Shown: positions 10,898 to 46,056 of the stretch, piece after piece
How the letters are laid out: each line of letters starts with the position of its first letter
Position numbering within the stretch: the first letter of the stretch is position 1
Assembly (NCBI GenBank): GCA_963822145.1
Contig: CAWGGG010000004.1
Span: 1,659,839 to 1,723,838, forward strand
Source: an uncultured Bacteroidales bacterium
GTDB lineage: Bacteria; Bacteroidota; Bacteroidia; Bacteroidales; UBA10428
Length of the DNA stretch: 64,000 nucleotides
Direction: 5' to 3'
The notes under the pieces: generated by a model
What the model saw: the letters and a program-made list of their open reading frames with translations, nothing else
Told to the model about the DNA's origin: nothing
The model's database searches: none
Position numbers and translations under genes: made by a program

Positions 10898-10912
10898 TTG
10901 AAACAATATCCC

Positions 10913-12817: not shown

Positions 12818-12857
12818 TTCATTCCTTTCGGGATTAATATTTCTTAATCTTGCTACA

Positions 12858-14606: not shown

Positions 14607-15578
14607 TTACTCCATGTCATCATTACCGGCCAGGCAGGAACTGCAGGAACAATCAATCCTGTCCGCTATGTTCTGACTGAGATTCATGGCATTGATCCTT
14701 TCGGCCCTCCTGTCGGTGCATTTCCGGCAGTGCGAGAAAAGTCCGAGATCCCAGGTATCAGCAAAAATGCGACCAGCTTTAAGGCTTATACCATATTCCA
14801 GGACCATTTCCAGCGACCGGATGTCAGGAGGGATAAAATCGCCCTGCATACGCAATGCTTCCAGGGCCCCATTACCCCCCCTCACCGGTATAACGGTACA
14901 ACATTCCACGCCGGCATGGTAAGCAAAATCAATGGACCGCTCCGCCCAGTAAATACCCTGGGATTCGGATAGAAAAGGAGGGCGCAGCAAAATAAACGCC
15001 CGCGAAAGGATGTTATTCCGCGTCAGATAACTTACAGCGTTACTGAAATCCTCCAGCGTCATCCGTTTGTTGAGCCGCCTGAGTAACACGGGTTGTACGG
15101 TTTCCAGTCCTATGGCCACCTGCAACTCAGGTTTAAGCATATCCCTGAATCGCAGACATTTTTCATTGATGAAACGGGGATGGCTTTCTACAATTACCGT
15201 TTCGAAACCGCTGATCAGCGATGCGATTACCGCATAATCTTCCTCAGGAATAGCCTTTCCGTCAAAGAAGCTTCCGCTGTTGTAGAGTTTCAAATGCCGG
15301 GCCGGAGGCATCTGCTCCAGGGCCATGGCAATCTGATGGGGAATGGCACCCACCGGAACTGGTTCGTCAGTGGTATTCTTCCAGAGATCACACATCAGGC
15401 AGTGGTAGGGACACTCGCGGTTGGTGAGAAAAATAATGCCCGTATCTTCTATCTTGCCCGAAGCCGTAAGCTCCTTTTCAACCAGCCATGCATATGCTAT
15501 TTGAGGATCTACAGGGTTCTTAGGACCGCGGTGGTGCCACGATCCAACGCTCATTGATTTCTGGTCCCGGGCTTTCAC
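14607..15578 (-). CDS. Radical SAM enzyme with Cys-rich C-terminal tail
   Basis: CPYHCLMC (CX3CX2C) is encoded at 15390-15413. C-terminal tail is HCRKC...CSCSSC. A GTG start at 15578 overlaps the upstream stop (GTGA); an alternative ATG lies at 15554. Confidence 0.8.
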   Translation of the reverse strand: MKARDQKSMSVGSWHHRGPKNPVDPQIAYAWLVEKELTASGKIEDTGIIFLTNRECPYHCLMCDLWKNTTDEPVPVGAIPHQIAMALEQMPPARHLKLYNSGSFFDGKAIPEEDYAVIASLISGFETVIVESHPRFINEKCLRFRDMLKPELQVAIGLETVQPVLLRRLNKRMTLEDFSNAVSYLTRNNILSRAFILLRPPFLSESQGIYWAERSIDFAYHAGVECCTVIPVRGGNGALEALRMQGDFIPPDIRSLEMVLEYGISLKAGRIFADTWDLGLFSHCRKCTDRRAERINAMNLSQNIADRIDCSCSSCLAGNDDME

Positions 15579-16903
15579 TCATAGATGGAAAGAAACTCCT
15601 TTCTGTAGACTATTTCTTTATCGGGGAAATGACTGTTAAATGCCTTCGAAGAGGCTGCTCCATGCTGGAAGCGCCTTTTGGGGAATACCGGCATATCCAT
15701 ACCTGTGACGGCTTTAACACCCAGGGATACGATCTGCCCCTTCAATTCATAGAGCTTCTGGTGGTCCCATTTGGTAAGGTCGATATAGGGAATACCCTCT
15801 GAAATCTCAATCACGTTGGGCAGGGTATATGGGCTGAATCCTTCAAAACCAAGCATAGCCGCGGGGGCCAGGGTACGCATGTATCCCCTGCTCAATCCTC
15901 CGGAATAGGTAAGGGAATGTTTGATGCTGTTCACGCCCCAGCCTTCATGATACAGCATGAGGTTGTTGAGCACGCTCCGTATGGTAAGCTCGGGATTTTC
16001 CTCGATAGGATAATCTTTCAGGTTCTCATCGCCCCCTTCCCCGTCGATGATGTACTTCCATTCGGGGTAGCGCGACCGGATACCCTGCAGCAGGGACAGG
16101 TTCATGGTAGCTGATTGGATGTCCAGCGGCTTGTAGTCCTCAACGATTTGAATGGTTTTTTTCCAGTCGAGGGCTTCATATTCAGCCTCCACGGGTTCCA
16201 GGAACATCTCCAGGTTCAGCATTTCCAGGAATTTCCTGGCCTGGATCAGGTCCTCACCGGCACCATCGATGCTGAGCGTAAAGGCCTTCAACCTTGAAGG
16301 GCTCTCACCGAGCTCCCGCAAGGCATGATACGTAAGCAGGAATACAGAACCGCTGTCGATGCCGGCGGAAAAGGTAACTCCGACCGGTCCTGATTTGGCC
16401 CGGAATAACAACCACTTCCTGATTTCCTGGTACAGGGCTCCGATGTAGAGCTCACCTATTTTTGCCGGGTTATCCGGAGTGAATTTATTCCGTTCGGGAT
16501 TAAAGAACCGGTCGTAAACCGGGTTTGGATCCGGGCATCCCAGCAGCTCTATTCTGGTGATGTAATGGGCCGGGACCATCCGCGTATAGGAGGGATGAAA
16601 CTGGTCGTCCAGCCCTTCCTTTCTAAGATATTCATAAAGTTCATCAATGCGTTCCGCTATTACCAGGCTTGGCCCGGCGGCCCTTTTGGCGATGAAGTAA
16701 CGCAGTGGACGGCCAATGGAACGTGCCATGCGGATGGTTTTTCCATCCACTGAAACCAGAGAGAACTGTCCGTCGATCCTGCGCACAGCTGCAATATCTC
16801 CCGATTTCAAAATATTAACGGCTTCTTCATGAGACATGTTGTAAATGATGTTCTTTTCGGGATTGGTGAGATCCACCACGTTGGCTACATATTGGCTATT
16901 CAT
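15575..16903 (-). CDS. Asparagine synthetase B-like PP-loop (adenylating) enzyme lacking the glutaminase nucleophile
   Basis: SAGIDSGS PP-loop-type motif with an AsnB-like C-terminal domain. The N-terminus is MNSQY, with no Cys2 as required for class-II glutamine amidotransferase activity. Confidence 0.72.
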   Translation of the reverse strand: MNSQYVANVVDLTNPEKNIIYNMSHEEAVNILKSGDIAAVRRIDGQFSLVSVDGKTIRMARSIGRPLRYFIAKRAAGPSLVIAERIDELYEYLRKEGLDDQFHPSYTRMVPAHYITRIELLGCPDPNPVYDRFFNPERNKFTPDNPAKIGELYIGALYQEIRKWLLFRAKSGPVGVTFSAGIDSGSVFLLTYHALRELGESPSRLKAFTLSIDGAGEDLIQARKFLEMLNLEMFLEPVEAEYEALDWKKTIQIVEDYKPLDIQSATMNLSLLQGIRSRYPEWKYIIDGEGGDENLKDYPIEENPELTIRSVLNNLMLYHEGWGVNSIKHSLTYSGGLSRGYMRTLAPAAMLGFEGFSPYTLPNVIEISEGIPYIDLTKWDHQKLYELKGQIVSLGVKAVTGMDMPVFPKRRFQHGAASSKAFNSHFPDKEIVYRKEFLSIYE

Positions 16904-16961
16904 ATTGTTGTCTTTATATTTGTTTTCATTTATAAACTCCTAATACTGCCTTCAATGCACG

Positions 16962-16983
16962 CTTCAACTGCGCTCAGTGTGAC
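16962..16983. repeat. Copy of the dispersed motif (cttcaactgcgctcagtgtgac)
   Basis: Matches 40792-40813 (cttcgactccgctcagtgtgac) with 2 mismatches, plus shared flanks aatgcac... and ...tgYtgtt. It contains the stop codon of 16974-18641. Confidence 0.5.
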
Positions 16984-18641
16984 TGTGTTGTTATACCTTT
17001 GCCCTGAATAATGGCAACATATCGGTCGGCTGCAAGGTTCCTAAATACTTCCTTCACCCCGTCAGACCAGATGATCTCAAGTTGCTCCACCTCTTTTTCC
17101 TGGGCAAGACCGATGTGCAGCCGGGGGTCATTATTGGAAAGGTAACTGGTGGCCCATTGGTTGACCAACACCTGTTTCTTACCACCGGCAGTGACAATAA
17201 CTTTAGCGCCGATGGCTGAAGCAGGCCCGTCTTTGCCTTTCAGGGTAAGCCCCAGCCAGTGGTTGGCATTGCCCCCGTCATTCCTCAGTAATATGGGTGT
17301 TGCCATCAGATCAACATGAGAAACCACAATATCCAGGTCCCCGTCATTATCATAATCCCATATGGCTGCACCACGACCGGAACGCTTGGTAGTAAAATAT
17401 GTTCCCATTTCCTTCCCTGCATCCCTGAAGTGACCTTTTCCGTCATTCTCCAGCAGCAGGGGTAGCTGCAGGATGAGTTCCTCTGCAGTACCGTTTGCCG
17501 CAAAAATATCAAGATCACCATCATTGTCAAAATCCAGAAAGGCTGCCCCCCAGCTCCCCTTTCCAGCCATATAGCCGGCAATCCCGCTTATCTCAGTAAT
17601 ATCGGTGTATACACCGCTTCCCATGTTGCGGTAAAGGGCGCCATATTCCAGATCGGTTACTAATATATCCTGTCTTCCATCGCCATCCACATCCCCGATT
17701 GTCCCATGCATGGATCCCGTCCCTTTGCCCTGACTGTTGGCTGCCACACCGCTTGCCACGCCAACTTCTCTGTATACCCCGTCATCATTCCTGAATAGGA
17801 AATTCAACTGATGATCGTTAGCCTGGAAGATATCCAGATCACCATCATCATCGCTGTCAAAAACAGTGAGTCCCATACATTTGGAATCGGGATAATACAG
17901 GTCTTTCTGCCGGGTCACATCTGTGAACTTACCATTGGGTTGCTGCTCATAGAGCATCGATGCCTGTCCGTTGTATTCAGAGGGGTGCGGCATCAGATCG
18001 GGTGTTGCCGGTGATTTATAGGCGGGATCAAAAGCCAGGAAGTTACCCACCATGGCATCCAACCTGCCATCCCGGTTATAATCCCAGAATATTACCCCTA
18101 TGCTCCATTTTGTAAAGCCGTTCAGGTTCTCCGGTCCCTGCAGTCCCAATGCATTTGTAATGTCCGTGAAGGTGCCATTCCCGTTATTGCGATAAAATAC
18201 ATTGGGACCGTAGTTCAGCAGATACAAGTCCTGGTCGCCGTCATTGTCATAATCCACGGCTCCTGCAGCCATACTCCAGTGGGTATCGACGATTCCTGCT
18301 TTTGCCGATATATCCGTAAACGTTCCGTTACCATTATTTTTATAAAGCTTGTCGGTGGTGTTCTTGAATACTTTCCCCTCAGGATCGGAAATGCCTTCCA
18401 GGTAGGTTCCGTTCATCATGAACAGGTCCATCAGCCCGTCGTTGTTATAATCGAATACTGTGATCCCCGATCCGCTGCTTTCGAGAATATTCTTATAGGA
18501 ATGATCGCCGAAGGTGTACCTGAAATTAATGCCGGCCTGTTTGGTCACATCGGTAAACGTTATGCTTTTCTTCTGCGCTCGGGATATTGCCGGAACCCAT
18601 AACAGGCAAATAATATTTATTAAAACAATCAACTTCTTCAT
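16974..18641 (-). CDS. FG-GAP/VCBS + ASPIC/UnbV protein (CRTAC1-like), 555 aa, secreted
   Basis: Signal peptide. Repeats DYNNDGLMDLF, DYDNDGDQDLY, DSDDDGDLDIF, DFDNDGDLDIF. C-terminal UnbV/ASPIC signature (IGAKVIVTAGGKKQ...YLSNNDPRLHIGL...LEIIWSDG). Confidence 0.85.
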   Translation of the reverse strand: MKKLIVLINIICLLWVPAISRAQKKSITFTDVTKQAGINFRYTFGDHSYKNILESSGSGITVFDYNNDGLMDLFMMNGTYLEGISDPEGKVFKNTTDKLYKNNGNGTFTDISAKAGIVDTHWSMAAGAVDYDNDGDQDLYLLNYGPNVFYRNNGNGTFTDITNALGLQGPENLNGFTKWSIGVIFWDYNRDGRLDAMVGNFLAFDPAYKSPATPDLMPHPSEYNGQASMLYEQQPNGKFTDVTRQKDLYYPDSKCMGLTVFDSDDDGDLDIFQANDHQLNFLFRNDDGVYREVGVASGVAANSQGKGTGSMHGTIGDVDGDGRQDILVTDLEYGALYRNMGSGVYTDITEISGIAGYMAGKGSWGAAFLDFDNDGDLDIFAANGTAEELILQLPLLLENDGKGHFRDAGKEMGTYFTTKRSGRGAAIWDYDNDGDLDIVVSHVDLMATPILLRNDGGNANHWLGLTLKGKDGPASAIGAKVIVTAGGKKQVLVNQWATSYLSNNDPRLHIGLAQEKEVEQLEIIWSDGVKEVFRNLAADRYVAIIQGKGITTQSH

Positions 18642-18673
18642 AAATCCATTGCATTGGAAGCAGTTTCAGCACT

Positions 18674-21600
18674 TCATTTAATCTTCATTTCCTTTAAGGC
18701 ATCAAGGTATCCTTCAGTGGTCACCACCCGGGTATTGTATTCCCGGTTGTAACGTTGAAGGACAGGATCAGCCGGATAATAATCCTTTGCACCCGGAGGA
18801 TAGCTTTTCATGCCGTGAAAAGGCAGCGGATCAACGGTATTGCCATGAGCCGTATTCAGATCGCCATCCTTTACCCATCCTACGCTGTGGATCAGGAAAT
18901 CCCTTTTCCATCCGTTCTTCAATTCAGGCAAGATATTGGCGTCGAAGGTAACCGAGGTTTCATCTCCGGCATTGGAAATGATATACTGGTTGTCTGCCTC
19001 TCTGAGCAGGGTTGTTACATCGCCATATCGGGTATAATTGCCGGTCAGGTCCCTCCATCTCGTGTCCTTATCCACGACGGCATAATCAAACCAGTGAGGA
19101 CCGTATCGGCCGCCCTTCCGGTAGGTGTCTGAGAATCCCCGGTAATGGAGATCAGCGCTGACCGGGTCCAATACAGTGGATTTTACAGGGGCGCTGCTGA
19201 CTTCATCTGAAAAGAAAACATAATCCCAGTTAATGTCCATATTGGTCCTGATCCGGATCCGGTGATCACCGGAAAGGAATTTACCGGTAAGGTCAGCAAT
19301 CACCGTTTTATCCTTGCCCATCGGAAAACCAGGATTATCAATAACTGTCTCCCATTCACCCTTCCTGTTAACCACCTGGATGACCGGTGGCATCACTGTA
19401 AGGTTACCCGACTGTGAAAGGGCTACATTGATACTGGCATCCGTAGGGAAGATCCAGCCATTAAGGAAAAGAAACAAGGTTTTACTGCCCGAAAGCCTGC
19501 CAGGATCGAGGATCAGGTCTTTCATCTCCGTAATGCCCTGATATTTGGCGGGTTTATACCCGGCCAGGTAATTATCATCCTTCTCTGAAATGAAGGACAG
19601 TACATCATTCCCCCGGGAATCCCGGGCGGAAACGGGCACCTGCTTCCTGCCTACCTGGTATACCTGGTAGCCGGGAAAAGGCGGTGGTGAAAACTGCTCG
19701 GCGACATAAATATCAACAGAATCGGGATGATCCACAGCAACCAGCTGCAATTTATCGAAGTAAATGGTCTCCCACAGCTCTGAGGTCACCTGGATGGAAT
19801 AAGATCCCTTATTGGGCTTTAGCATTTCACCCGGTATCCTGATATAATCATCGGAGGCCTCGGCAAAAGCATAGGCAGTATTGCCACCCATGATTCCCAG
19901 AGGCATACCGAGAGCGCTTCTCCAGAGAATGTCCTTGGCAAAAACATACTGGCTGCCGTTCCAGGTATACAGGAAGGGACAGGACCCTTTCAGGGTCTGT
20001 GCCTCAATAAGAGCCTGGTCGGTTCCCGGGGAGAAAATGTTCTGGGGAACACCATTCGTCCAGGTAATCCGGATCACATCTGTTTTAGCCCTGCTTCCAA
20101 TACCGAAATGGACATTCGGATCAGTAACCACTGTAGTCTGATAAAGGTCTCCTGAACGCATTTCCACCTTGGCTCCTATGCCAAAGTGATTATTCTTGGC
20201 GCTTCCTGCCTTCAACCCCACCAATTTCATCTTTACATAGTGGTTGTTGTTCCCCCCATCGTTCCTGAACAGGGAAATTCCACCATTTAAACCGGCGATC
20301 AGCAGGTCAAGATCTCCGTCATCATTGTAATCAAAAACAGCAATTTGCCTGCCCGATTTCACCTCAGCCGGGAGCAGATTGGAGACATCGGTAAAACCTC
20401 CCTTACCGTTGTTGTGAAACATGAAAAGTCCCTTCCCTTCAGTTCCTGATGAGCCGGCCACCATCAGATCGATATATCCGTCATTATCGAAATCCAGGAA
20501 AGCAGCATCGTAAACCTTCCCCTGTCTGAGGGGAAGAAAGACTTCCATTCCTTTACTAACACGTTCAAAACTACCATTGCGCAAATTCCGGAAGAGTTCG
20601 GAGCTGCCTCCGTTATCGGAAACGATGAATACATCGAGGTATCCGTCATTGTCATAATCTCCCACTGCTATTGCACTGTTGCCACCGGCACTTTTCAAGC
20701 CGCTTTTTTCCGTTACGTCCTTGAAAATGCCCTGCCGCTGGTTGGAGTAAAGAATGCAACCGGTCTTTTCATTCACCACGATAAAATCGATGTCGCCGTC
20801 CTCGTCAAAATCGCCAAAGGCTGCATCGCGACCCACATCACCACTTCCCGAAATACCCATTTTCGCGGCCTGCTCGGTGAAGGTGCCGTCTGCATTGTTA
20901 CGCAACAAAAGGTTAGGACTGGACCCGGCCTCAAAGATATCCAGGTCACCGTCATGATCCAGATCAAAAAACAGGGCCTTGTTTCCCCCGGTCTTAATCC
21001 CGGCAAGTGCTTTGTTGCTAACTTCCTCAAAATTACCCTGTCCGGCGTTGCGGTACAATACATCACCCCCATCTTTCACGACATACAGGTCGAGAAACCC
21101 GTCATTGTCATAATCCGCAAAACAGGCGTCATATTCTTTACCGGTATGGTTGATGCCTGCCTCAGCGGTAATATCCTTAAATCTTCCCATTTCATTAATG
21201 AGGAGATAGTGCTTATATGTGTCAGAAACAGGATTAAAACTGCCCGCGTAAAGATCAATATCCCCGTCACTGTCAAAATCAGCTGCAGCGACATGTGCGG
21301 TGTTCTCAGTCCCCCTATTCTGAGCCTGCGACCCGGCAGGAATAATATCAAGACCTGCAGAAGCCGAAACCTCAGCGAACCTGATCACCTCCAGAATTGA
21401 CTCGTTCTCGGCTAACTGGGAGGTGGATTGCTGGTCGAAGGTGATGAGCGGAAAACCGATCAGGGATCCGCCAGGTCCTTTTAAATCCACGATGCCGGCC
21501 TGGTAAGGAGAGGTCACTTTAAGATAATTGTGAAAAATCGTAAACTGAATGATCCCATTATCCTTATCATGCTTTTTCAGCAGGGAAATGGTCTTATCAT

Positions 21601-22240: not shown

Positions 22241-22245
22241 GGTTT

Positions 22246-22261
22246 CAAAATTACAAAATTA
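22246..22261 (-). promoter_or_regulatory. Two tandem TAATTTTG boxes (Bacteroidota -7-type element) just upstream of the 18674-22240 gene
   Basis: The minus strand reads TAATTTTGTAATTTTGAAACC-ATG. Each box fits the TAnnTTTG consensus. No clear -33 TTTG element was seen. Confidence 0.3.
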
Positions 22262-22272
22262 TATGACGATAA

Positions 22273-22300
22273 GTCATGTTGAGCGGAGTCGAAACATGAC
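22273..22300. repeat. Hairpin copy of a dispersed TTCGACTCCGCTCA motif
   Basis: gtcatgtt-gagcggagtcga-aacatgac: 8-bp stem, 12-nt loop, overlapping the stop codon of 22300-23400. The core is shared with 16962-16983 and 40792-40813. Confidence 0.55.
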
Positions 22301-23400: not shown

Positions 23401-23508
23401 GGTTTTTACTACGAGGTTGTGAAACATCCTCACAGAGGATGAATTATGGTGGAAACTTGAACGAATAAGATCATACAACCCTGAAGGGGTGGAATAATTC
23501 TACGATTA

Positions 23509-24372: not shown

Positions 24373-24410
24373 GTTCAGTTTCTAATTCAACCCACTTGCA
24401 AATAGAAATC

Positions 24411-25700
24411 TCATTGTAATTCCTTTTTATAGGGAGGCGCAGGCGAAAACTCAAATTTGCCGTTACTGATTTTTGCCAGATAGATGGGCCTAATATTGTT
24501 CCAGGTCGCATCAAATACCATCTTTCCAGAAGCTCCCTCATATCCCTGGAATGTTTTCAAGTCAGTGAGGACATCGCGGATCAGGACACGATTGAGCCCT
24601 GCCTTTTTTATGGACTCAATGATCAGGTTCATTCCATCATAGGCGTGCACGGCAAAAACGTCAGGCTCCATTCCAAAGCGCTTTTTGTAGTTCAACCTGA
24701 ATGCTGCCAGTTTTGGATCTTTTGAATCGGGATTATATTGACAGGTGGTCATAATTCCATCAGCCAGCTTTCCGGCAATACTCAGGAATTCAGGATTTAC
24801 GATCCTGTCGGAACAGAAGACCGGCTGATTCATGCCCATCTTACGTAAATCCTTGAGAATCAAGGCAGATTCCTTTGGATTTCCCCATATTATAATAGCA
24901 TCCGGTTTTGTATCCTTTATCCGCTGCAGTTGCTCAGTAAATACCGTTTCACCATCTTTGAAACGCTCCTCGATAATAATGGGATAACCCAAACGGGTAG
25001 CGGTTTTATTAAAATGAACGACTCCCACCCTGCCATAACGGTTATTTACCCTGATCACAGCAACCCTGGAATGGCTGTTAAGTTCGAAAATGTAATTTGC
25101 CAGTGCATAACAACTTTGCCGGTCATCGGGAATGACTCTTATCACCCAGGGAATATTGGTCTCAGTAAAGGTAGGATCGGGGTCACCGGTACAAACCATC
25201 GGTATTTCCAGTTTGAGAGTGGCACGAATGGCCACATGGGATACAATATCATCAATTGAACCCAGCCAGGCCCAGACTCCCTCATCGTCCATCTTCACCA
25301 CCTCGTTGGCAGCCGCACCCCAAAGTCCGACATCGTTATGGATCATCATTTTATAAGGAATACCCTTGTACCCGCCTTTTTTGTTGGCCTCCTCAATGGC
25401 CAGCGTGGCCCCCTGGAGCATCTGCTTACCGTAATCAACAATGATCGATCCCTCAAGAGGCCCGAGAAAACCTATCCTGACTTCCTTAAGGTTGGTGGGT
25501 GGCGGTATTTCACGTCCGGCCCCGTAAAACTGCATGGGAGTAAGAAAATGGTATTTGTAGGCCTTCTGGTATTTATCGTAGGCAACGTATGTTTCCGGAA
25601 CATTTCCATAGTTATCGCCATATTGTTGCCCTGAAGTCATTGAAATGGCAAAGAACATCAGCACTAAAGATGTTAAAACTGACTTTACGGTTGGTTTCAT
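24411..25700 (-). CDS. Periplasmic binding protein, LivJ-like (type I PBP) family, secreted
   Basis: Likely start is ATG 25700 (MKPTVKSVLTSLVLMFFAISMTSG signal). VRIGFLGPLEG...GATLAIEEANKKGGYKG...WLGSID fits the LivJ-like fold. Second orphan PBP in the cluster. Confidence 0.72.
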   Translation of the reverse strand: MKPTVKSVLTSLVLMFFAISMTSGQQYGDNYGNVPETYVAYDKYQKAYKYHFLTPMQFYGAGREIPPPTNLKEVRIGFLGPLEGSIIVDYGKQMLQGATLAIEEANKKGGYKGIPYKMMIHNDVGLWGAAANEVVKMDDEGVWAWLGSIDDIVSHVAIRATLKLEIPMVCTGDPDPTFTETNIPWVIRVIPDDRQSCYALANYIFELNSHSRVAVIRVNNRYGRVGVVHFNKTATRLGYPIIIEERFKDGETVFTEQLQRIKDTKPDAIIIWGNPKESALILKDLRKMGMNQPVFCSDRIVNPEFLSIAGKLADGIMTTCQYNPDSKDPKLAAFRLNYKKRFGMEPDVFAVHAYDGMNLIIESIKKAGLNRVLIRDVLTDLKTFQGYEGASGKMVFDATWNNIRPIYLAKISNGKFEFSPAPPYKKELQ

Positions 25701-25741
25701 ATCCATTGTTATTATTTCTATTAGCAATCAGTATAAACAAA

Positions 25742-26929
25742 TTAATTGATCACTTCTCCGCGGCTTAAACCTTTGGAAGTTGCCACCCATATGACATCAC
25801 CTTCTGCATCGGCATTAATTACAAAGCTATGGGCGATGGAAGGAGATATCGGAATCTCTTTTTTCTCATTTCCGGAAGTGATGATCGCCACCCCGCTGGT
25901 GTTGTTTTCATTCCGTTTATAGGTAACCCAGGTCGTACCATCAGTAGTGCTTAATCCTTTATCCGTACAAGCATAGGCAACTCTCCCGTTAACCTGCACA
26001 AAGTTTATGAAATTGCTGGCCAGTCCGCTGTCATGATCAAAGTATCCCTTCCAGTTCTTGCCATCGTACCTGCAAAAGCCAAAGTAGGAGGATACCCAGA
26101 GAACGCCGTTGGCCCAGGCGGTAGCTGTAGTAATATCATGAACAGGTCCGTCATCGGGAAGGAGATCTATCTCCATAAAGCCATCAGGATCAACATAATC
26201 CCTGAAATGCTTGGTTTCCTTGTTATATTCAATTATACCTCCACCCCAGGCTGCAATGAAGATCTTCCCCTGTCCGGCTGAAAGCGCATAGGTCCAGGGT
26301 TCATGCATCGGAGCATTCATTTCGGTGAAGATTTCCCATTCCTTAGTATAGGTGTCATAATGGCCTGCACCGCCCCCTGTGGCCATCCAAACATCCTTAC
26401 CGTCGCATACTACATTGTAAACAAGGTCGTTGGGCATGCCGCTGTTCATCTGGGTGAAAGTTTCAAACTTCCCGGATGACCATCGGTTCAACCCGCCTAG
26501 GGTTCCGATCCAAACATCACCCGTAACCGGGCTGACATCAACCGAAACTACGCCATTATGTGCCAGTCCGTCTTTGGTGGTATAGGTTTTCCATTTGCCG
26601 TTCTCATAAACTGCCAGGCCATGGTGAGTGCCAACCAGCACGCGATCACCATCGATCTTAACCGAGTAAACCTTATCGGAAGGGAGTCCGTCTTGCGTGG
26701 TGAAATTCCGCCAGTTGCCGTATACCGGCATGCCATTGGCCTCTTTTATGGAGGTAGTGGCTGAAGGCCCGGCAACATAATCGCTGTCTGAAGAAGATGA
26801 TTTTTCCGACGGCGGCCTCCCGGTCCCGGATTGGCCCTTTTCCGGTTTTTTTACAAACAATACAGCCACTACTATAATAGCTACAACAACCAGTGCTGCA
26901 ATTGAATATTGGAGAATTCTTGATTTCAT
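25742..26929 (-). CDS. Membrane-anchored beta-propeller protein with two-component-regulator-propeller (Reg_prop)-type repeats, no kinase domain
   Basis: N-terminal TM helix, then a Ser-rich linker. Repeats of the type DGLPSDKVYSVKIDGDRVLVGTHHGLAVYENGKWKTY / DGLAHNGVVSVDV..GDVWIGTLGGLNRW. Confidence 0.68.
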   Translation of the reverse strand: MKSRILQYSIAALVVVAIIVVAVLFVKKPEKGQSGTGRPPSEKSSSSDSDYVAGPSATTSIKEANGMPVYGNWRNFTTQDGLPSDKVYSVKIDGDRVLVGTHHGLAVYENGKWKTYTTKDGLAHNGVVSVDVSPVTGDVWIGTLGGLNRWSSGKFETFTQMNSGMPNDLVYNVVCDGKDVWMATGGGAGHYDTYTKEWEIFTEMNAPMHEPWTYALSAGQGKIFIAAWGGGIIEYNKETKHFRDYVDPDGFMEIDLLPDDGPVHDITTATAWANGVLWVSSYFGFCRYDGKNWKGYFDHDSGLASNFINFVQVNGRVAYACTDKGLSTTDGTTWVTYKRNENNTSGVAIITSGNEKKEIPISPSIAHSFVINADAEGDVIWVATSKGLSRGEVIN

Positions 26930-26958
26930 AGTGTTACGGTTAGGTGATATGTTTATTG

Positions 26959-28998
26959 TTAATGGTTTATTACAGAGGCTTCTGCTGGTTTATCAGCTTC
27001 TTCTTCATATTCGGGCGAGCGTAATGATTTGAGATATTCTATCAGGTTGTTGAGGTCAATTTTCGTAAGATCATTTAAAGCGCCATGACGCTCATCCTTG
27101 CCGTAAATTGTCCATATCTCCTCGAGTGTTGCTGCTCTGCCGTCGTGCAGGTAAGGCGCCGAAGCATATATATTGTTTAAATGGGGTGTATCAAATAAGA
27201 TGGAATCGTCGGTTGCTGCCAGTGTTCCTACATCCGCGGGTTGCAGATTTGTATAATACGGAGGCGGATGACAGGTAATGCAACGATTTTTAACTGGAAT
27301 TTCCTGACCGTAATTATTATGTGTGCGCTCAAAAATAGCCTTGCCACTTTGCTGTGCTTTGGTTAATTTTCCGCCGGGATTGTATTGAAGATTTGGCGGA
27401 TAGGGAATCCCGGTGAGGATATAGGACACCAGTGCATCGAGTTTGTCGTAACTAAAGGGTTCGGTTCGGGTTAGTACGGTTGAAAAACGCATGCCGTCCT
27501 GCTTGTAAACCGTCTGGTTCTTACCGTTCCATTTAAAAGGAGGTGTTTCTGAAATATCGCGGAGTGACTGGGTATTGGTAATGTTCCGGCCCATGTCCTT
27601 CGATGCCATATTATACACAAGACCGTCTTCATGCACATCCGGATGACAGGTATAGCATGCATATTGAGTCTGGAAAGTGCCTCCTGCATTATTCAGTATT
27701 CTTCTTCCTTTCCGGGCTACTGTCACCCTGCGTGGCCCGCCCAGATCAATGGTCTTTTCCATTTCCAGTGTTGCGGTATTAATAACAGCAATCCGGTCCT
27801 CCAGATGTTCAGCCACATATAACAGTTTTCCGTCAGATGACATGGCAAGCCCTTTCGGATTCGCTCCCGTGGGGATACGTTTGATCACATAACGGCTGCT
27901 GATGCCGAGATGATTGGCATAGATCTTCAGCTCATCATCAGATGATTCTGCCAGCAAGGTCCGGATGGCATCGATGTCAAGCACGGAAATAAAATCCACT
28001 CCTGAACTGGAGATAAAAGCTCGTTTACCGTCGGGTGTTATGGCAACATCGAACGGATCGGGGTAATACGCATTGGGTTCGTCCAGCAGCAGCTGTACCG
28101 TCCTTCCTCCGGGTTTTAATTCAATGATTCCAAAACCGTGAGTCATCATCCATCCCCTGTCTACCTGAATGGTGGGCATATTGTTCTTGGGACGTATCAG
28201 GGGAAATATGGCCAGATCGCATGATGGTGTAAATGCTATGTTCTCCATCATGTAGGCCGACCTGATGCCCCTGCGTTCCACGATCCTCCGTTTGTCATCG
28301 TTCACCACGGTCAATTCGCAGATCACCGTATCATCATAGGGGCGGCCCATGGTCCGCCGGCTGGTGACAAACAGGGAACTTCCGTCAGGAGTCGCGCCAA
28401 TTCCGGTCGGATTATTACCGGCAGTGAGCCTTTTTTCCTCTTCTTTGGTTTTCAGGTTGATCACCGAAAGGTCAGAAGTATAGGAATTCACTGCATACAG
28501 ATACTTTCCGTCAGCACTCAGGGCCAAACCTGCCGGACCACCGCCGGTCCTCAGGGTATCCTTTACCTCAAATCCGGAAAGATCAATGACGGATATATTA
28601 TCTGACCATTGGTTGCTGACATAGGCCGTGCTTTCATCTTTATCAAGAATAACACTGTGGGGCTGATCACCTACCTTGATTTTACGGATAACCTTTTGGT
28701 TTTCAGTATCTACTACCAGCAAAGCATCGCCTTCCTCGGCAACTACGTATAACTTTTTACCATCCTTAGTAATAGCCAGGTTGAAAGGAGAATAGTAATC
28801 CGCATTGACCATTTTTGCCAGGAGTCCGCTTTTCTGTTTATACAAATGGCAATTATAACAGGCAAGCGGGTGATCCTCCACAGCCGTTTGGTAGTTCACA
28901 TGTGCCCTGGCCAGTTTATGTGCTTTCGGATATATCAGTGAAACAGCCAGAATAAGTATGCCTGCTGTGGTTAAAAGAATATAGTGATGTCTTTTCAT
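26959..28998 (-). CDS. Tri-heme protein: N-terminal CxxCH + YVTN-type beta-propeller + C-terminal di-heme cytochrome c peroxidase/MauG-like domain
   Basis: Signal anchor. CYNCH at 28846-28860, CYTCH at 27643-27657, CITCH at 27268-27282. The last is followed by the CCP-typical FDTPHLNNIYASAPYLHDG. The middle has repeated D.K.LYV.N..S..ISVID-type propeller blades. Confidence 0.8.
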   Translation of the reverse strand: MKRHHYILLTTAGILILAVSLIYPKAHKLARAHVNYQTAVEDHPLACYNCHLYKQKSGLLAKMVNADYYSPFNLAITKDGKKLYVVAEEGDALLVVDTENQKVIRKIKVGDQPHSVILDKDESTAYVSNQWSDNISVIDLSGFEVKDTLRTGGGPAGLALSADGKYLYAVNSYTSDLSVINLKTKEEEKRLTAGNNPTGIGATPDGSSLFVTSRRTMGRPYDDTVICELTVVNDDKRRIVERRGIRSAYMMENIAFTPSCDLAIFPLIRPKNNMPTIQVDRGWMMTHGFGIIELKPGGRTVQLLLDEPNAYYPDPFDVAITPDGKRAFISSSGVDFISVLDIDAIRTLLAESSDDELKIYANHLGISSRYVIKRIPTGANPKGLAMSSDGKLLYVAEHLEDRIAVINTATLEMEKTIDLGGPRRVTVARKGRRILNNAGGTFQTQYACYTCHPDVHEDGLVYNMASKDMGRNITNTQSLRDISETPPFKWNGKNQTVYKQDGMRFSTVLTRTEPFSYDKLDALVSYILTGIPYPPNLQYNPGGKLTKAQQSGKAIFERTHNNYGQEIPVKNRCITCHPPPYYTNLQPADVGTLAATDDSILFDTPHLNNIYASAPYLHDGRAATLEEIWTIYGKDERHGALNDLTKIDLNNLIEYLKSLRSPEYEEEADKPAEASVINH

Positions 28999-29000
28999 AA

Positions 29001-30437
29001 TTATTCCAATTCAACTTCTTTTTCAGTGACTTCGGTGATATGTACGGGTATATTAACCGGGTCCTTTTTTACTGACAGGGGTACATTGTTTTCAGGCGCC
29101 AGTTCGTGATCTTCGTGACAACCCACACACCCTCTTCTTTCATTAGGCCGTATCCATATCCAGGAGCAAGGACCGTTTACCACCTTACCGTCCTCATCCA
29201 GGGTCTGTATCCGGAAAGGGGTGTCGGCCATCGCCTTTAAATAAAATGACCCGTCCTCTTCAACCGTAATGATCCCCAGGGAAGAATTCAACCCGAGCAC
29301 TTCAATCTTGCTGGCCTTTTTACCAGATGACTGAGTTTCCGCGAAGCCGGGGTCAAGGATATGAATATCCTGGCAAAGCAGCAATCCGGTTTTTACCCCC
29401 ATGTCCACCTCGCTCGGCAGCTTTTTGGGACGGGCCCTTACTTCAACCACCAATGCATCCAGGATATCATGATCGGCAGAAGCAAAGACAGGCTGACCAA
29501 GAACCTTTTTTTTCGGATCAAATTCGTAAAGGGCGAACCGTTCGGTATCAGCCTTTCGGTATGTCACCAGGTACTTTCCTGAGGAATGCACTGACACTGT
29601 GAGAAAATCGCCTTTGAGGCCGGAGGTGAGATTGATGCGTGAATTTAGCGGCCGGTTATAGCTAATTGAGACCATGTGCCCTGATCCGGAGTGTGCGCTG
29701 TCAGTTTCGATAAAAACGATTTTCCCGTCTGCAGTTTCCGCGGCGCGTCCTAATAATGACGTATTTTCCGATCCTTTGTAAAACATGTCCGCTTTTGTTC
29801 CGTCGGGACGCATGACCATCATTAACTGTTCTTCCGGAGCAGGAAATAATTGCCGGCTGACAGTCAAAAGGCGGCCATCATGCAACGTGCTGGATGCGAA
29901 ATAGCAGTTCGGGCTATAAGTGATCCGCTGCATACCTGAACCATCCAGGTTACCGGCATAGAGTGAATATCCTGCCTTCAGCGAATCATTTGCCAGTATT
30001 TTACTGTATAATAATCGGTTACCTGGCAGATAAACAGGATCCGTACAGTGATCACCCGATGTGGTGATCTGTCTTACCGATGAATTCCCAAGATCCATCT
30101 CCCATATCTGCCATACATCTCCCTCCTTCTGCTGCCCGGCAAACAGCATGGATTTACCATCATAGGAGATATCGGGTGAGCAGGCTGAATAAAACCCCGC
30201 GGTAAGCAACTTTGGTGATTTTCCAGGATTGTTTGGATGCACCGCCAGCAGACGGGCTCCGGGAATATACCGCCAGGATGCGCCTGAGATGTAATCGGGA
30301 TTACCGGCTTTTTCTGCACATTCAGTTATGATAATCATATCCGTCACCGGTTTGCCCTTACAGGATAACATGATAAGACCTGAGAATCCAACAGTTACCA
30401 GGCTTGCGAGTGAGATAACAAGTAATCTTAGCTTCAT
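29001..30437 (-). CDS. TolB/PD40-like beta-propeller lipoprotein with C-terminal c-type heme motif
   Basis: ATG 30437 gives MKLRLLVISLASLVTVGFSGLIMLSC (lipobox); the track start 30449 is TTG. SPDISYDGKSMLFAG...WQIWEMDL is a PD40-like blade. CVGCH is encoded at 29115-29129. Confidence 0.65.
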   Translation of the reverse strand: MKLRLLVISLASLVTVGFSGLIMLSCKGKPVTDMIIITECAEKAGNPDYISGASWRYIPGARLLAVHPNNPGKSPKLLTAGFYSACSPDISYDGKSMLFAGQQKEGDVWQIWEMDLGNSSVRQITTSGDHCTDPVYLPGNRLLYSKILANDSLKAGYSLYAGNLDGSGMQRITYSPNCYFASSTLHDGRLLTVSRQLFPAPEEQLMMVMRPDGTKADMFYKGSENTSLLGRAAETADGKIVFIETDSAHSGSGHMVSISYNRPLNSRINLTSGLKGDFLTVSVHSSGKYLVTYRKADTERFALYEFDPKKKVLGQPVFASADHDILDALVVEVRARPKKLPSEVDMGVKTGLLLCQDIHILDPGFAETQSSGKKASKIEVLGLNSSLGIITVEEDGSFYLKAMADTPFRIQTLDEDGKVVNGPCSWIWIRPNERRGCVGCHEDHELAPENNVPLSVKKDPVNIPVHITEVTEKEVELE

Positions 30438-30445
30438 GCAACTGA

Positions 30446-32152
30446 TCAATTAGGTTCTGTTATAGTAAGGATCTGGTTGGCTTTGGTATTATCCAGGGTC
30501 TGGGTTTTTCCGGAAGGCCATTTTATTTCGATCTTTTCTACCACTTCATTCTTTGCCAGGCCAAAATGCATCCTCGGATCATTCTGGGATAAATAGCCAA
30601 CGGTACTTTTCTTCTGGGCTGTCTGGGTTTTGCCTCCGGATGTTATTTTAACAATGGCGCCTATGCCATCGTGGTTACTTGAGGTGCCAACCAACTTAAG
30701 GATCAGCCAGTTATTCTGGTTACCCTTGTTATTGCGTAAAAACATCGCGCGGTTGTTGAGGTTGACAATAAAAACATCCAGATCCCCATCATTATCATAA
30801 TCTCCAATGCAGGTACCGCGTCCGACATACTCCTGATGGAAATATGCTCCCCTTTCCAGTGAAATATCCGTAAACTTACCGTTACCCAGGTTTTCAAAAA
30901 TCTGGTCCTCATGTCCGTACAGATGCTTCAGGGCGCCATTGGTTTTATAAATATCCATGTCCATATCATTGTCATAATCAATAAAGGAGGACGACCAGCC
31001 CACAAATTGAGCTGCCTGGGAGGAAATCCCTACCGGATTGGCTTTATCTGTGAATACACCATTACCCAGATTTTCATATAATGAACAGTAGGTATCATCT
31101 GAAACAAATATGTCCATCAGCCCGTCTCCGTTATAATCAGCAAAATCAACCGACATGCTTACAGTAGCTTCACCACCCTGACTGAAAGCAGTGCCCGACA
31201 TCGTTCCGATATCGGTGAACTTTTTGCCCGCTTCGTTATGCCAGAGGTAATTCAAGGTATGATCGTTGGCAACGTAAATGTCAACAAAGCCATCATTGTC
31301 CACATCGGCTGCCCCAACGCCCATAGCCCTGCCATCCATATCAATGATGCCCATGGCCTGTGTGACGTCTTTAAAAGTACCGTCTCCGTTATTATGATAC
31401 AATACGTCTGGTTCGGCCTCGTAAGCCATTGGGGGCGGGAAACCGTCGGGAGCATAAAAATATTTGTAATCAGGGTCAAATTCAAGATAATTGCCCACAT
31501 AAAGATCGAGGAAACTGTCATTATCGTAATCTAACCATACGGCACCTACGCTGCAGGTATGATCTCCAGCAACACCGGCCTTTTCGGTGACATTGGTGAA
31601 AGTCCCGTTTCCTTTGTTCCTGTAAAGCACATTATGGCCATAATTGCAAACATACAGATCGGGATATCCATTGTTGTCATAGTCCCCTACTGAAACGCCC
31701 ATGCTGTACCAGGGTCCGCCCACACCGGCTTTTCTGGTCACATCCTCAAAAGTGCCGTCACCCCTGTTGCGATAGAGACGATTGCCCGGAAGCTGGTCAG
31801 GCTTTTCGCTTTTGGTGAAGCCTTCGATCCAGGTGCCACTGGTTACATAAATATCAATGTATCCGTCCTGGTCATAATCAAGAAATGCCGTACCACCACA
31901 ACTTGATTCAACGATGTTCAGCAGTTCGGTGCCACCAATCGAATGGACAAAATCCAACCCGATCTGTTCTCCTATTTCCTGGAAGTAATCATCATTTGCC
32001 GCCGGAAGGGTTGCTGCCGGTTTCTTAGAGCCAGAGGATCTATTGTCGGACTGACATCCGGACAGGACCAGCAACATAACGAACAGGAGAACATATAGCC
32101 TCCCGATGACATTTCTGATACCCGCACTTTTTTTCAACCTTAAGCAAACCAT
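30446..32152 (-). CDS. FG-GAP/VCBS + ASPIC/UnbV lipoprotein (CRTAC1-like), 568 aa
   Basis: Lipobox (VLSGC). Repeats DYDQDGYIDIY, DYDNNGYPDLY, DVDNDGFVDIY, DYDNDGDLDVF. UnbV signature GIGAIVKITSGGKTQ...YLSQNDPRMHFGL...IEIKWPSG. Confidence 0.85.
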   Translation of the reverse strand: MVCLRLKKSAGIRNVIGRLYVLLFVMLLVLSGCQSDNRSSGSKKPAATLPAANDDYFQEIGEQIGLDFVHSIGGTELLNIVESSCGGTAFLDYDQDGYIDIYVTSGTWIEGFTKSEKPDQLPGNRLYRNRGDGTFEDVTRKAGVGGPWYSMGVSVGDYDNNGYPDLYVCNYGHNVLYRNKGNGTFTNVTEKAGVAGDHTCSVGAVWLDYDNDSFLDLYVGNYLEFDPDYKYFYAPDGFPPPMAYEAEPDVLYHNNGDGTFKDVTQAMGIIDMDGRAMGVGAADVDNDGFVDIYVANDHTLNYLWHNEAGKKFTDIGTMSGTAFSQGGEATVSMSVDFADYNGDGLMDIFVSDDTYCSLYENLGNGVFTDKANPVGISSQAAQFVGWSSSFIDYDNDMDMDIYKTNGALKHLYGHEDQIFENLGNGKFTDISLERGAYFHQEYVGRGTCIGDYDNDGDLDVFIVNLNNRAMFLRNNKGNQNNWLILKLVGTSSNHDGIGAIVKITSGGKTQTAQKKSTVGYLSQNDPRMHFGLAKNEVVEKIEIKWPSGKTQTLDNTKANQILTITEPN

Positions 32153-32235: not shown

Positions 32236-32243
32236 CAAATATA
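32236..32243 (-). promoter_or_regulatory. Possible -7 promoter box (TATATTTG) for the 32152->14607 cluster
   Basis: The minus strand reads TATATTTG, fitting TAnnTTTG, 84 nt upstream of ATG 32152. No convincing -33 element was found. Confidence 0.25.
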
Positions 32244-33922: not shown

Positions 33923-33923
33923 G

Positions 33924-46050: not shown

Positions 46051-46056
46051 GGATTT

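Follow-up and report, generated by a model that had tools for sequence, protein, structure and literature searches.

A conserved Bacteroidota operon around heme proteins homologous to hydrazine synthase subunits

Introduction

The DNA studied here is a 64 kb stretch from an uncultured Bacteroidales bacterium (assembly GCA_963822145.1, contig CAWGGG010000004.1), which is called the window below. Its positions 14607-32152 carry eleven genes, g1 to g11, all on the minus strand, in which exported heme and propeller proteins stand beside cytoplasmic enzymes. The question raised by this locus is what such a set of genes does and whether it is one system at all. Our analysis showed that it is a conserved Bacteroidota operon, that its two heme proteins are homologues of the subunits of hydrazine synthase (HZS), and that it almost certainly does not produce hydrazine.

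Homologues of HZS have been described before. An hzsA-like gene beside fused hzsBC-like genes was reported in Phycisphaerae in 2023, and HZS-like enzymes were suggested to be a broad family whose members act on other substrates; possible new anammox organisms were raised for the Phycisphaerae genes, and a beta-gamma fusion was noted also in Scalindua (PMC10732223). Later, co-localised HZS homologues were sorted bioinformatically into clades I-IV (Hagglund et al., Genome Biol Evol, December 2025; PMC12758564). In clade III, an FG-GAP/CRTAC1 gene lies upstream of alpha, alpha lies upstream of a fused beta-gamma gene, and two substrate-binding-protein genes lie downstream. The clade III alpha has no C-terminal heme alpha-II region, and its beta-gamma has one extra heme motif. 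The hit tables of that study include Bacteroidota, Prolixibacteraceae and Maribacter, and the paper proposes no function.

Results

Two heme proteins related to hydrazine synthase

Only two open reading frames (ORFs) in the 64-kb window encode c-heme proteins, g9 with three CxxCH motifs and g10 with one:

29001..30449, minus strand: g10, truncated HZS alpha homologue; lipoprotein (start M5 at 30437, Cys30) with a TolB-like propeller, an HZS_alpha middle domain and one heme motif, CVGCH441
26959..28998, minus strand: g9, homologue of the HZS beta-gamma fusion; N-terminal anchor, extra heme motif CYNCH47, 7-bladed YVTN propeller, and CCP/MauG-type di-heme domain (CYTCH448, CITCH573)

The middle domain of g10 matched Pfam HZS_alpha (E = 3e-19), and the protein matched the NCBIfam HZS alpha model NF052339 (E = 3.5e-30; 105 bits against a cut-off of 800) and chain A of PDB 5C2V (E = 1e-23). 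For g9, the matches were to the NCBIfam beta-gamma fusion model NF052342 (E = 3.3e-63; 214 bits, cut-off 1250), HZS beta (E = 1.5e-60; 205 bits, cut-off 560) and HZS gamma (E = 1e-21; 77 bits, cut-off 625), and to chains B (E = 2e-47) and C (E = 3e-16) of PDB 5C2V. We are highly confident that g10 and g9 are homologues of HZS alpha and of fused HZS beta-gamma. Because the scores lie 5- to 8-fold under the equivalog cut-offs, both were taken as relatives of HZS and not as its orthologues.

The di-heme part of g9 keeps the Trp of CCP/MauG (W490) and the PY(L)HDG motif (APYLHDG, His618). In the PDB, the C-terminal heme region of g9, and this region only, was aligned by di-heme peroxidases and MauG-type proteins (1iqc, 6qkn, 6fu3, 3o5c and 6e1c) with E = 5e-5 to 1e-3. 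The likeness to di-heme CCP, MauG and MbnH extends to two CxxCH motifs about 125 residues apart, an inter-heme Trp (FKWNG in g9, FWDGR in these proteins) and a P-Y-x-H-D-G motif. In contrast to them, g9 joins the module to a propeller and an extra heme in one chain, and has a heme-propeller partner. By these sequence features the gamma module resembles bacterial di-heme peroxidases or MauG. The heme peroxidase-like catalysis proposed in the preliminary description was therefore reasonable in flavour, given the CCP/MauG Trp and the PY(L)HDG motif of g9, but the identity of the pair as HZS alpha and beta-gamma had gone unrecognised.

For comparison, we retrieved the 80 best-scoring species-level loci. 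Gene presence was determined by BLASTP of all ORFs of a locus against the window proteins and counted in the 48 loci with at least 9.5 kb of downstream sequence; for the upstream neighbours (g11, the two-component system and SusC/SusD) the denominator was 49 loci. The heme motifs are constant in these families: exactly three CxxCH, together with invariant W490 and H618, in 69 of 69 full-length relatives of g9, and exactly one CxxCH in 74 of 74 relatives of g10. The fastest-evolving member of the cluster is g10, with 35-72% identity across loci. Under permissive thresholds, the g9 and g10 genes (26959-30449) could be counted as hzsA/B/C in marker-gene surveys.

The hydrazine synthase active sites are replaced

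In the alignment to 5c2v_C, gamma-His144 of HZS, which is placed between the two gamma hemes, corresponds to Trp490 of g9 (PPFRHEG in HZS, PPFKWNG in g9), and this Trp is invariant in the 69 relatives. The same alignment places gamma-Cys165, which forms the third covalent heme link, inside a 5-residue deletion of g9, and pairs gamma-Asp168 with Phe. Only 6 of the 69 relatives have a Cys anywhere in the 40 residues after the Trp. In g10 the heme site reads CVGCH (441-445) followed by E-D-H-E, and an equivalent of alpha-Tyr591 is absent; the +4 position after the CxxCH His is Glu in 68 of 74 relatives. In HZS, the ligand of heme alpha-I is alpha-Tyr591, found four residues past the CxxCH His, and this His binds zinc. 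The protein g10 stops 37 residues past its sole CxxCH, so that the C-terminal bis-His heme alpha-II domain is absent. A 2-residue gap at the alpha-Tyr591 site has been reported for clades I-III, which were likewise concluded not to be hydrazine synthases (PMC12758564). With the defining residues of the heme gamma-I and alpha-I sites replaced, the operon does not encode a hydrazine synthase, and it almost certainly makes no hydrazine.

These residues also bear on the idea of a cryptic hydrazine synthase, or another N-N bond-forming enzyme, which, like anammox HZS, would join a reduced nitric oxide (NO) species to ammonium or to an organic amine. The adjacent alpha/beta-gamma pair does contain clear homologues of all three subunits, and a small cation might fit the invariant pocket of g7 (three Asp and one Arg). 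The Scalindua fusion and the proposal of new anammox organisms for similar Phycisphaerae genes (PMC10732223) could be read in the same direction. However, gamma-Cys165, gamma-Asp168, gamma-His144, alpha-Tyr591 and the heme alpha-II domain are missing or replaced, the scores are 5- to 8-fold under the NCBIfam equivalog cut-offs, and the conclusion of PMC12758564 for clades I-III was the same. No octaheme HAO/HDH-type gene was found in the 64-kb window, where g9 and g10 are the sole c-heme ORFs, and the hosts of the cluster include strict aerobes. We consider this explanation very unlikely.

A known core in a larger gene set

The arrangement of the locus is that of clade III. Here g11, a CRTAC1-like gene, lies upstream of g10 and not between alpha and beta-gamma, and g10 lies upstream of g9; g10 has one CxxCH and g9 has three, and two Peripla_BP_6 genes (g7 and g5) lie downstream. 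The clade III clusters share with the locus the Trp in place of gamma-His144 and the missing alpha-Tyr591, and we found no contradicting feature. The locus is thus a clade III HZS homologue cluster as defined in PMC12758564. The preliminary description had known of no described system of such composition; this did not hold for the core, which is already in that paper.

Several parts of the locus are unmentioned there: the tethered propeller (g8), the DAHP synthase (g6), the 1188-aa TPR-CRTAC1 protein (g4), the second CRTAC1 gene, the pair of AsnB-like and radical SAM enzymes (g2 and g1), the two-component system with its operator, and the SusC/SusD neighbour. The same is true of a RidA-like protein found in related loci. 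What is new here is the full conserved gene set, the mobile AsnB-like/radical SAM pair, the operator and regulon, the SusC/SusD link and the list of cultured carriers.

Compared with the anammox HZS of Kuenenia stuttgartiensis (PDB 5C2V), the pair has in common the propeller with a heme alpha-I middle domain, the 7-bladed beta propeller, the di-heme gamma module, the adjacency of the genes and the export of the products. The gene order is inverted here, however, the alpha protein has one heme and not two, and beta-gamma has an extra N-terminal heme. CRTAC1-like, binding-protein-fold and cytoplasmic partners have been added, and the hosts are not anammox bacteria.

One conserved operon

The coordinates given for g1-g11 are those of the longest ORFs. 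Their spacing is at most 70 nt throughout, with a 2-nt gap at the g10/g9 junction (28998/29001) and 4-nt overlaps at 15575-15578 (g2/g1) and 30446-30449 (g11/g10). Likelier starts are M27 for g5 and M5 (30437) for g10; with these, the gap of about 110 nt and the 30437/30446 junction given in the preliminary description were reproduced, and its eleven consecutive, tightly packed minus-strand genes and their coordinates proved exact. Its domain calls were all borne out by Pfam and NCBIfam, which gave three FG-GAP_3 plus UnbV_ASPIC proteins, weak Reg_prop repeats, two Peripla_BP_6 proteins, a DAHP synthase, an Asn_synthase PP-loop protein and a radical SAM protein. N-termini were judged by eye for export signals: signal peptides were seen on g3, g5 and g7, lipoboxes on g4, g10 and g11, N-terminal membrane helices or anchors on g8 and g9, and none of these on g1, g2 and g6.

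A terminator scan found no terminator-like site in the intergenic gaps of the cluster. The counts of the promoter and terminator scan were about those expected from shuffled sequence, and the promoter model used is unsuited to Bacteroidota. An Rfam scan of 14000-35000 returned only a chance SgrS match inside coding sequence, and no riboswitch or other RNA. Because the gaps are at most 70 nt and free of terminator-like sites, the eleven genes are regarded as one operon, and its conservation is described next.

At E < 1e-3 the alpha-like family has 4316 representatives (50% clustering), 424 of them at E < 1e-30, and when one genome was scanned for each species, at least 582 had an alpha relative. 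The order g11-g10-g9-g8-(RidA-like)-g7-(g6)-g5-g4 recurs almost everywhere in the 80 loci and persists down to 35% alpha identity. Carriers among these loci are Bacteroidales, Rikenellaceae, Prolixibacteraceae and Flavobacteriaceae, with metagenome-assembled genomes (MAGs) of Cytophagales, Rhodothermales and Gemmatimonadota. Cultured carriers are Maribacter polysiphoniae DSM 23514, Lutimonas saemankumensis and Sunxiuqinia sp. A32. The hosts thus span aerobes (Maribacter, Lutimonas) and Bacteroidales from anaerobic digesters and sediments. An unbiased clustering of the remaining locus ORFs gave no further family in more than six loci.

Could chance have brought together transcription units for exported proteins and for cytoplasmic enzymes that have nothing to do with each other? 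The AsnB-like/radical SAM pair does stand alone in other phyla, and the DAHP synthase and the RidA-like gene are each missing from about one fifth of loci. Against this, dozens of species retain the same order and the same neighbours, even where alpha is only 35% identical; g2-g1 is still attached when it lies at the other end of the cluster. In close loci, g1 and g2 are adjacent in 50 of 51 cases, and a cluster gene is present in 26 of 28. Synteny has largely refuted this explanation, which we now find barely credible, and for the exported genes chance juxtaposition is excluded. The synteny check named in the preliminary description therefore came out in favour of a single heme module that is conserved, dedicated and extracytoplasmic and to which cytoplasmic enzymes are linked.

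Two features of the retrieved loci concern sequence quality. In a Chloroflexota MAG (L058), the whole cluster is present together with the two-component system and SusC/SusD, and the identities are those usual for Bacteroidales (g11 72%, response regulator 76%); this contig is probably mis-binned and is not taken as evidence for the system in Chloroflexota. In several MAG loci, L056, L057, L064 and L085 (and L001 and L005), single genes (g10, g9, g8, g11, g7) are split into two or three adjacent ORF fragments, which look like long-read frameshift errors and not pseudogenes.

Exported partner proteins

The heme pair is accompanied by six other exported products:

30446..32152, minus strand: g11, CRTAC1-like FG-GAP/ASPIC-UnbV lipoprotein, first gene of the operon (FG-GAP_3 E = 1.6e-58, UnbV_ASPIC E = 5e-23)
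25742..26929, minus strand: g8, beta-propeller tethered to the inner membrane; N-terminal transmembrane helix, low-complexity linker and weak Reg_prop repeats (E = 5e-6)
24411..25727, minus strand: g7, Peripla_BP_6 fold with signal peptide (Pfam E = 4e-46; PDB 4gnr E = 3e-25)
22300..23478, minus strand: g5, Peripla_BP_6 fold, likely start M27 at 23400 (Pfam E = 6e-31; nearest PDB entries 4gnr and 3td9)
18674..22240, minus strand: g4, 1188-aa lipoprotein with TPR repeats, CRTAC1-like propeller, ASPIC domain and about 440 aa of C-terminal beta-sandwich domains (Pfam)
16974..18641, minus strand: g3, CRTAC1-like FG-GAP/ASPIC-UnbV propeller with signal peptide (FG-GAP_3 E = 2.6e-44, UnbV_ASPIC E = 4e-18)

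Most of these genes are nearly constant companions. Directly upstream of the alpha homologue, g11 was found in 46 of 49 loci; g8 (53-84% identity), g7 and g5 were each present in 47 of 48, and g4 in 43 of 48, a count limited by contig edges. In 27 of 34 close loci g3 precedes g2. The CRTAC1-like members g11, g3 and g4 belong to the calcium-propeller type. CRTAC1-like proteins also accompany the HZS homologues of clades I-III (PMC12758564), and we infer that these propellers are obligate partners of the heme pair. Our literature search on ASPIC/UnbV proteins, the CRTAC1 family and RaSEA-like bacterial enzymes found nothing functional.

The large protein g4 matched human CRTAC1 (PDB 9etn, E = 6e-13). 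An AlphaFold2 (AF2) model of its C-terminus was all-beta with pLDDT 81.5, and a Foldseek search of that model against PDB gave nothing under E = 1e-3, only weak matches to discoidin/PAPP-A-like beta-sandwiches and no enzymatic assignment.

Both g7 and g5 have the LivJ fold. The pocket of g7 is invariant in its family, rich in Asp and not LivJ-like (D, G, D, P, Y, N, D, R, F). The LivJ residues S79, T102, Y202 and E226, which grip the alpha-amino and alpha-carboxylate groups of the ligand, are not kept: the corresponding residues are D, P, N and D in g7 and G, S, Q and L in g5, in a low-identity alignment that deserves modest weight. Because the ligand residues of LivJ are not conserved, the idea that g5 and g7 bind amino acids was downgraded.

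A two-component system and its putative operator

An OmpR-type two-component system lies immediately upstream of the operon on the same strand, as the preliminary description had stated and Pfam confirmed. The regulatory features are:

33924..34601, minus strand: OmpR/PhoB-type response regulator, Response_reg plus Trans_reg_C (Pfam)
32555..33955, minus strand: sensor histidine kinase with transmembrane helix, periplasmic domain, transmembrane helix, HAMP, HisKA and HATPase (Pfam); likely start M12 at 33922
32473..32511, minus strand: operator-like array of four TTTAAT direct repeats with 11-bp spacing, between the histidine-kinase stop and the g11 promoter
32236..32243, minus strand: candidate Bacteroidota -7 box, TATATTTG, 84-91 nt before the g11 ATG, proposed from a search for the TAnnTTTG motif

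A gap of 402 nt separates the histidine kinase from g11. The kinase was found upstream of g11 in 25 of 49 loci (54-73% identity), and orthologues of the response regulator in 25 of 49 as well (71-80%). Boxes akin to TATATTTG were seen upstream of g11 in several loci.

OmpR/PhoB regulators usually bind direct repeats that are spaced by one helical turn. The sequence TTTAATN5TTTAAT is expected 0.61 times in 64 kb, and 3 of its 4 matches in the window fall in the array; over 74 loci, 90 of 151 matches lie just upstream of g11. The repeats occur upstream of g11 in loci that bear the two-component system and are missing where the system is absent. Extra copies lie 75-160 nt upstream of a divergent SusC gene in seven loci. 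Because the array has the spacing of OmpR/PhoB-type sites, lies upstream of both g11 and SusC, and tracks the two-component system, the regulator, the HZS-like operon and the SusC operon probably form one regulon.

The best NCBIfam match of the kinase was the CztS/SilS/CopS subfamily (207 bits), and that of the response regulator the CztR/SilR/CopR subfamily (237 bits), both under the cut-off. Metal sensing by the kinase was considered on the strength of this family resemblance and was rejected, the match being sub-cut-off and the periplasmic domain having, by eye, no evident metal-binding residues.

The peroxidase-like centre and this regulator bear on two further explanations. In the first, g9 would act as a maturation enzyme of the MauG/MbnH type, using peroxide to oxidise side chains of a partner encoded next to it (an alpha-like, CRTAC1-like or binding-protein-fold protein) and so creating a protein-derived cofactor or metal site, and the end function, for instance catalysis or the binding of a metal, would lie in the partner. 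The inter-heme Trp of CCP/MauG is kept in g9, which also gave weak matches to the MbnH, MauG and His-Xaa-Ser-system MauG-like families and to PDB 6e1c; and the subfamily nearest to the two-component system is the heavy-metal one of CopRS/CusRS. Genes for MauG-like enzymes typically neighbour those of their protein substrates and sometimes those of TonB-dependent transporters, and a radical SAM enzyme in the cluster recalls the maturation of quinohemoprotein amine dehydrogenase. But the MauG and MbnH model matches are far under the cut-off, no convincing ORF for a small precursor peptide was found in the cluster or in the 402-nt leader, and the kinase lacks obvious metal ligands on inspection. 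The retained HZS architecture, a propeller with a second heme site, favours small-molecule catalysis. Maturation of this kind is unlikely, though we rank it first among the alternatives.

In the second, the operon would serve stress defence, its heme proteins being a periplasmic peroxidase or an NO/hydroxylamine reductase that detoxifies reactive oxygen or nitrogen species and is induced by the two-component system under oxidative or metal stress of the envelope. This would agree with a CCP-like gamma module, with a regulator resembling the CopR/CusR/HprR families and with carriers that are both aerobic and anaerobic, and heme gamma-I of HZS is reported to bind and reduce NO (PMC12607021). It would, however, make about ten conserved accessory genes superfluous, among them three or four CRTAC1-like genes, two binding-protein-fold genes, the SusC/SusD importer and the cytoplasmic biosynthetic enzymes. 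The distal Asp of HZS gamma-I, which is implicated in NO chemistry, is not kept. We therefore think a defence role quite improbable.

Neighbouring SusC/SusD operons and glycan genes

Two sets of SusC/SusD genes lie on the plus strand on the downstream side of the operon:

2..7466, plus strand: neighbour operon of SusC (2-2305, cut by the window edge), SusD (2322-4061) and a 1097-aa CRTAC1-like protein (4173-7466); Pfam
7751..14606, plus strand: second SusC (7751-10897) and two tandem SusD genes (10898-12817 and 12723-14606), convergent on g1; Pfam

Orthologues of the first set (55-78% identity) lie divergently upstream of the two-component system or of g11 in 16-19 of 49 loci; alternatively, the SusC/SusD/CRTAC1 operon stands on the same strand before g2-g1 (L011, L049, L125). 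That the cluster has no transporter, as was said in the preliminary description, is true only inside the eleven genes; the conserved TonB-dependent SusC/SusD operon with a fourth CRTAC1-like gene, at 2-7466 in the window, is often found beside the cluster. Whether the second SusC/SusD set is a member of the system is uncertain.

The tandem SusD paralogues of the second set are 79% identical, with long blocks of 100% identity and an internal indel of about 55 residues in one of them, and their longest ORFs overlap by 95 nt. The pattern suggests a recent duplication, gene conversion or a strain variant collapsed in the assembly. The stop codons of the last SusD (SusD3) and of g1 meet at 14604-14609: SusD3 ends at 14606 and g1 at 14607, with zero intergenic bases and no room for a terminator for either gene.

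The other flank, at 34697-37560 and 40960-52067, contains glycan-utilisation genes (FGGY kinase, SASA acetylesterase, GHL6-like protein, MFS sugar transporter, GH95 fucosidase, GH42 beta-galactosidase and SDR). Among these the FGGY kinase alone recurs beside the system in close relatives (L001, L006). Clustering of ORFs across loci found no family of carbohydrate-active enzymes (CAZymes) that recurs with the cluster. Between the SASA esterase/FGGY kinase genes and the GHL6-like protein, a 738-aa ORF on the minus strand (38418-40634) had no Pfam or NCBIfam match.

With Bacteroidota polysaccharide utilisation loci the system shares an adjacent and apparently co-regulated SusC/SusD pair, surface-type lipoproteins and a dedicated envelope sensor. 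It differs in having no conserved glycoside hydrolase or lyase, heme proteins taking the place of the CAZymes, and in its sensor, which is a classical OmpR-type two-component system and neither a hybrid nor an extracytoplasmic function sigma/anti-sigma factor system. One might then picture oxidative polymer utilisation, in which CRTAC1-like surface lipoproteins and SusC/SusD capture a recalcitrant polymer (glycan, glycoprotein, or humic or phenolic matter) and the heme proteins cleave or modify it as CAZymes do in ordinary loci. The conserved SusC/SusD/CRTAC1 neighbours with an operator common to both operons, and a window rich in glycan genes (GH95, GH42, SASA esterase, FGGY kinase, MFS sugar transporter), would fit; so would the lectin- or discoidin-like beta-sandwiches of the g4 C-terminus and the Reg_prop repeats of g8, which occur also in Bacteroides glycan sensors. 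Yet no CAZyme is conserved with the cluster, the flanking glycan genes vary between loci, and the Foldseek matches of the g4 C-terminus are not significant. Moreover, HZS-type active sites are described as lying inside the protein with tunnels for access, a layout that fits small molecules (Dietl et al. 2015, summarised in PMC12758564 and PMC12607021). Polymer attack therefore seems improbable to us, second among the alternatives.

The cytoplasmic genes

Three genes of the operon encode predicted cytoplasmic enzymes:

23509..24372, minus strand: g6, type I-beta DAHP synthase without regulatory domain (NF006421 448 bits, TIGR01361 395 bits, both over cut-off)
15575..16903, minus strand: g2, 442-aa PP-loop ATPase related to Asn synthase, with an SAGIDSG motif; cytoplasmic (Pfam Asn_synthase at residues 172-304, E = 1.6e-10)
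14607..15578, minus strand: g1, 323-aa RaSEA-like radical SAM enzyme with a CPYHCLMC motif; cytoplasmic, its 4-nt overlap with g2 pointing to translational coupling

The DAHP synthase g6 was found in 39 of 48 loci and is absent, for example, from Sunxiuqinia (L004) and Maribacter (L038), so it is an accessory member. A RidA-like gene between g8 and g7 is likewise present in 39 of 48; it is missing from the window, where the gap is only 14 nt (25728-25741; compare 14724-15299 in L001). The RidA-like protein is cytoplasmic and has a conserved N-terminal extension of 60 residues (LLIDLSKLTDGE..EMKKLGIL). It gave one weak match, with FkbO/Hyg5 chorismatases (E = 2.7e-5; 24 bits, cut-off 325), and a chorismatase role, intriguing beside a DAHP synthase, might be suggested by this match as a lead only.

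The N-terminal glutaminase is absent from g2, which starts with MNSQYV, has no Cys2 and no GATase match, and scored 32 bits with TIGR01536 (cut-off 267). Glutamine-dependent asparagine synthase AsnB was rejected as an identity on these grounds, the Ntn glutaminase domain being absent and the score far under the TIGR01536 cut-off. The radical SAM protein g1 matched Pfam Radical_SAM and aligned with positions 8-297 of 313 of the RaSEA model TIGR01210 (E = 2.5e-32; 112 bits, cut-off 212). It was not accepted as a true RaSEA, since the equivalog cut-off was missed and its partner is AsnB-like instead of ArcS. In the ArcS-RaSEA archaeosine system, the radical SAM enzyme works on a lysine adduct that its partner has made. 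The pair is like this system in the full-length model alignment of g1 and in the translational coupling to a partner enzyme; it differs in that the partner is an AsnB-type PP-loop ATPase, the hosts are bacteria, and there is no tRNA-guanine transglycosylase context. PDB sequence and profile searches with g1 and g2 returned no relative even at E = 10, and an AF2 model of g2 built from 30 homologues (81-96% identical) had a pLDDT of 37, too poor for a fold search.

The 120 best homologues of g2 are all about 442 aa and 81-96% identical, against 35-72% for g10. Across phyla the AsnB-like/RaSEA-like pair is 60-96% identical; for g2 the identity is 81-96% within Bacteroidota and 60-67% in GC-rich contigs of other phyla. 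In a metagenome scan anchored on g2, homologues of at least 72% identity had g1 adjacent in 50 of 51 cases and a CRTAC1/HZS-like cluster gene in 26 of 28; at 60-72%, in GC-rich contigs, the figures were 6 of 10 and 0 of 5. The distant homologues (60-67%) stand in mixed contexts (gyrB/lon, DUF1501, PSD-domain proteins, MacB exporter, PQQ_2 propeller) that give no functional clue. In L158 and L159, a PQQ_2/BamB-like propeller follows g2 in place of the radical SAM gene, and g2 is apart from HZS-like genes in L147, L156, L158, L159 and L165.

The position of the pair varies: g2 is at the cluster end in L004 and L005 and upstream of g11 in L011, L048, L049, L051, L055, L060 and L074. In all, g2-g1 (at times g3-g2-g1) was found upstream of g11 in at least nine genome loci and in several metagenome contigs; the pair thus travels with the cluster through rearrangement. 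Loci anchored on g2 show g4-g3-g2-g1 and then unrelated genes, which puts the end of the cluster at g1. The AsnB-like/RaSEA-like pair is an autonomous, very conserved two-enzyme module that is kept physically attached to the operon in Bacteroidota.

Discussion

What, then, does the operon do? Our preferred explanation, to which we give about an even chance, is that this conserved HZS-like operon encodes a periplasmic two-site heme oxidoreductase with a peroxidase/MauG-type centre that acts on an imported small molecule.

How it might work can be set out stepwise, as a proposal that we hold only tentatively. The alpha and beta-gamma proteins would form, by analogy with HZS, a two-site heme oxidoreductase in the periplasm. 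A substrate would be imported by the co-regulated outer-membrane system of SusC, SusD and the CRTAC1-like protein, and presented by the binding-protein-fold subunits. The di-heme CCP/MauG-type centre may be activated by peroxide, or the extra, membrane-proximal heme may serve as its route for electron exchange; this centre and the alpha heme would jointly oxidise or otherwise transform a small polar, possibly nitrogenous molecule. In the cytoplasm, the g2-g1 pair may, by analogy with ArcS/RaSEA, transfer nitrogen from an amino-acid donor to form an amide or amidine. The proposal of the preliminary description that the cytoplasmic enzymes provide a cofactor or substrate gained no support: the pair also stands by itself in other phyla, and about one fifth of loci do without the DAHP synthase. 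The DAHP synthase and the RidA-like protein would be accessory, and may be a loose pointer to a chorismate-derived or imine-handling step.

Several points weigh against the two-site oxidoreductase. The complex of alpha and beta-gamma and the tunnel that would connect its sites are assumed from HZS. The Pfam CCP_MauG score of g9 is 24.0 bits, just under the cut-off of 25.6. The SusC/SusD link exists in only about one third of the loci with enough flank. The pockets of g5 and g7 are unlike LivJ-type amino-acid sites, so that the "nitrogenous small molecule" is a guess, and the pocket of g5 is poorly conserved and variable within its family. The AsnB-like/radical SAM pair occurs in other phyla with no genes of the cluster and may be unrelated housekeeping that is merely co-located.

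A bolder version would see here a second, widespread branch of the HZS family, performing tunnel-coupled two-step nitrogen chemistry outside anammox bacteria, for example the reaction of a heme-bound species at the level of NO or hydroxylamine, or of a peroxide-activated intermediate, with an organic amine brought in by the binding-protein-fold subunits. We regard this as a long shot. To our knowledge, hydrazine synthase was long thought to have no relatives. If the bolder version were true, hundreds of Bacteroidota species of sediments, soils and the sea would perform an N-N, N-O or amine-oxidising reaction that has gone unrecognised, and the AsnB-like/RaSEA-like pair could supply or recycle the nitrogenous partner. 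That pair is itself an uncharacterised enzyme couple.

The presence of HZS-like genes in at least 582 species-level genomes carries a risk that they are mistaken for hzsA/B/C in metagenome and metatranscriptome surveys of anammox. In Bacteroidota the HZS homologues belong to a constant set of about 12-17 genes whose regulator and operator can be recognised, which gives a full inventory of its parts and a handle for its induction.

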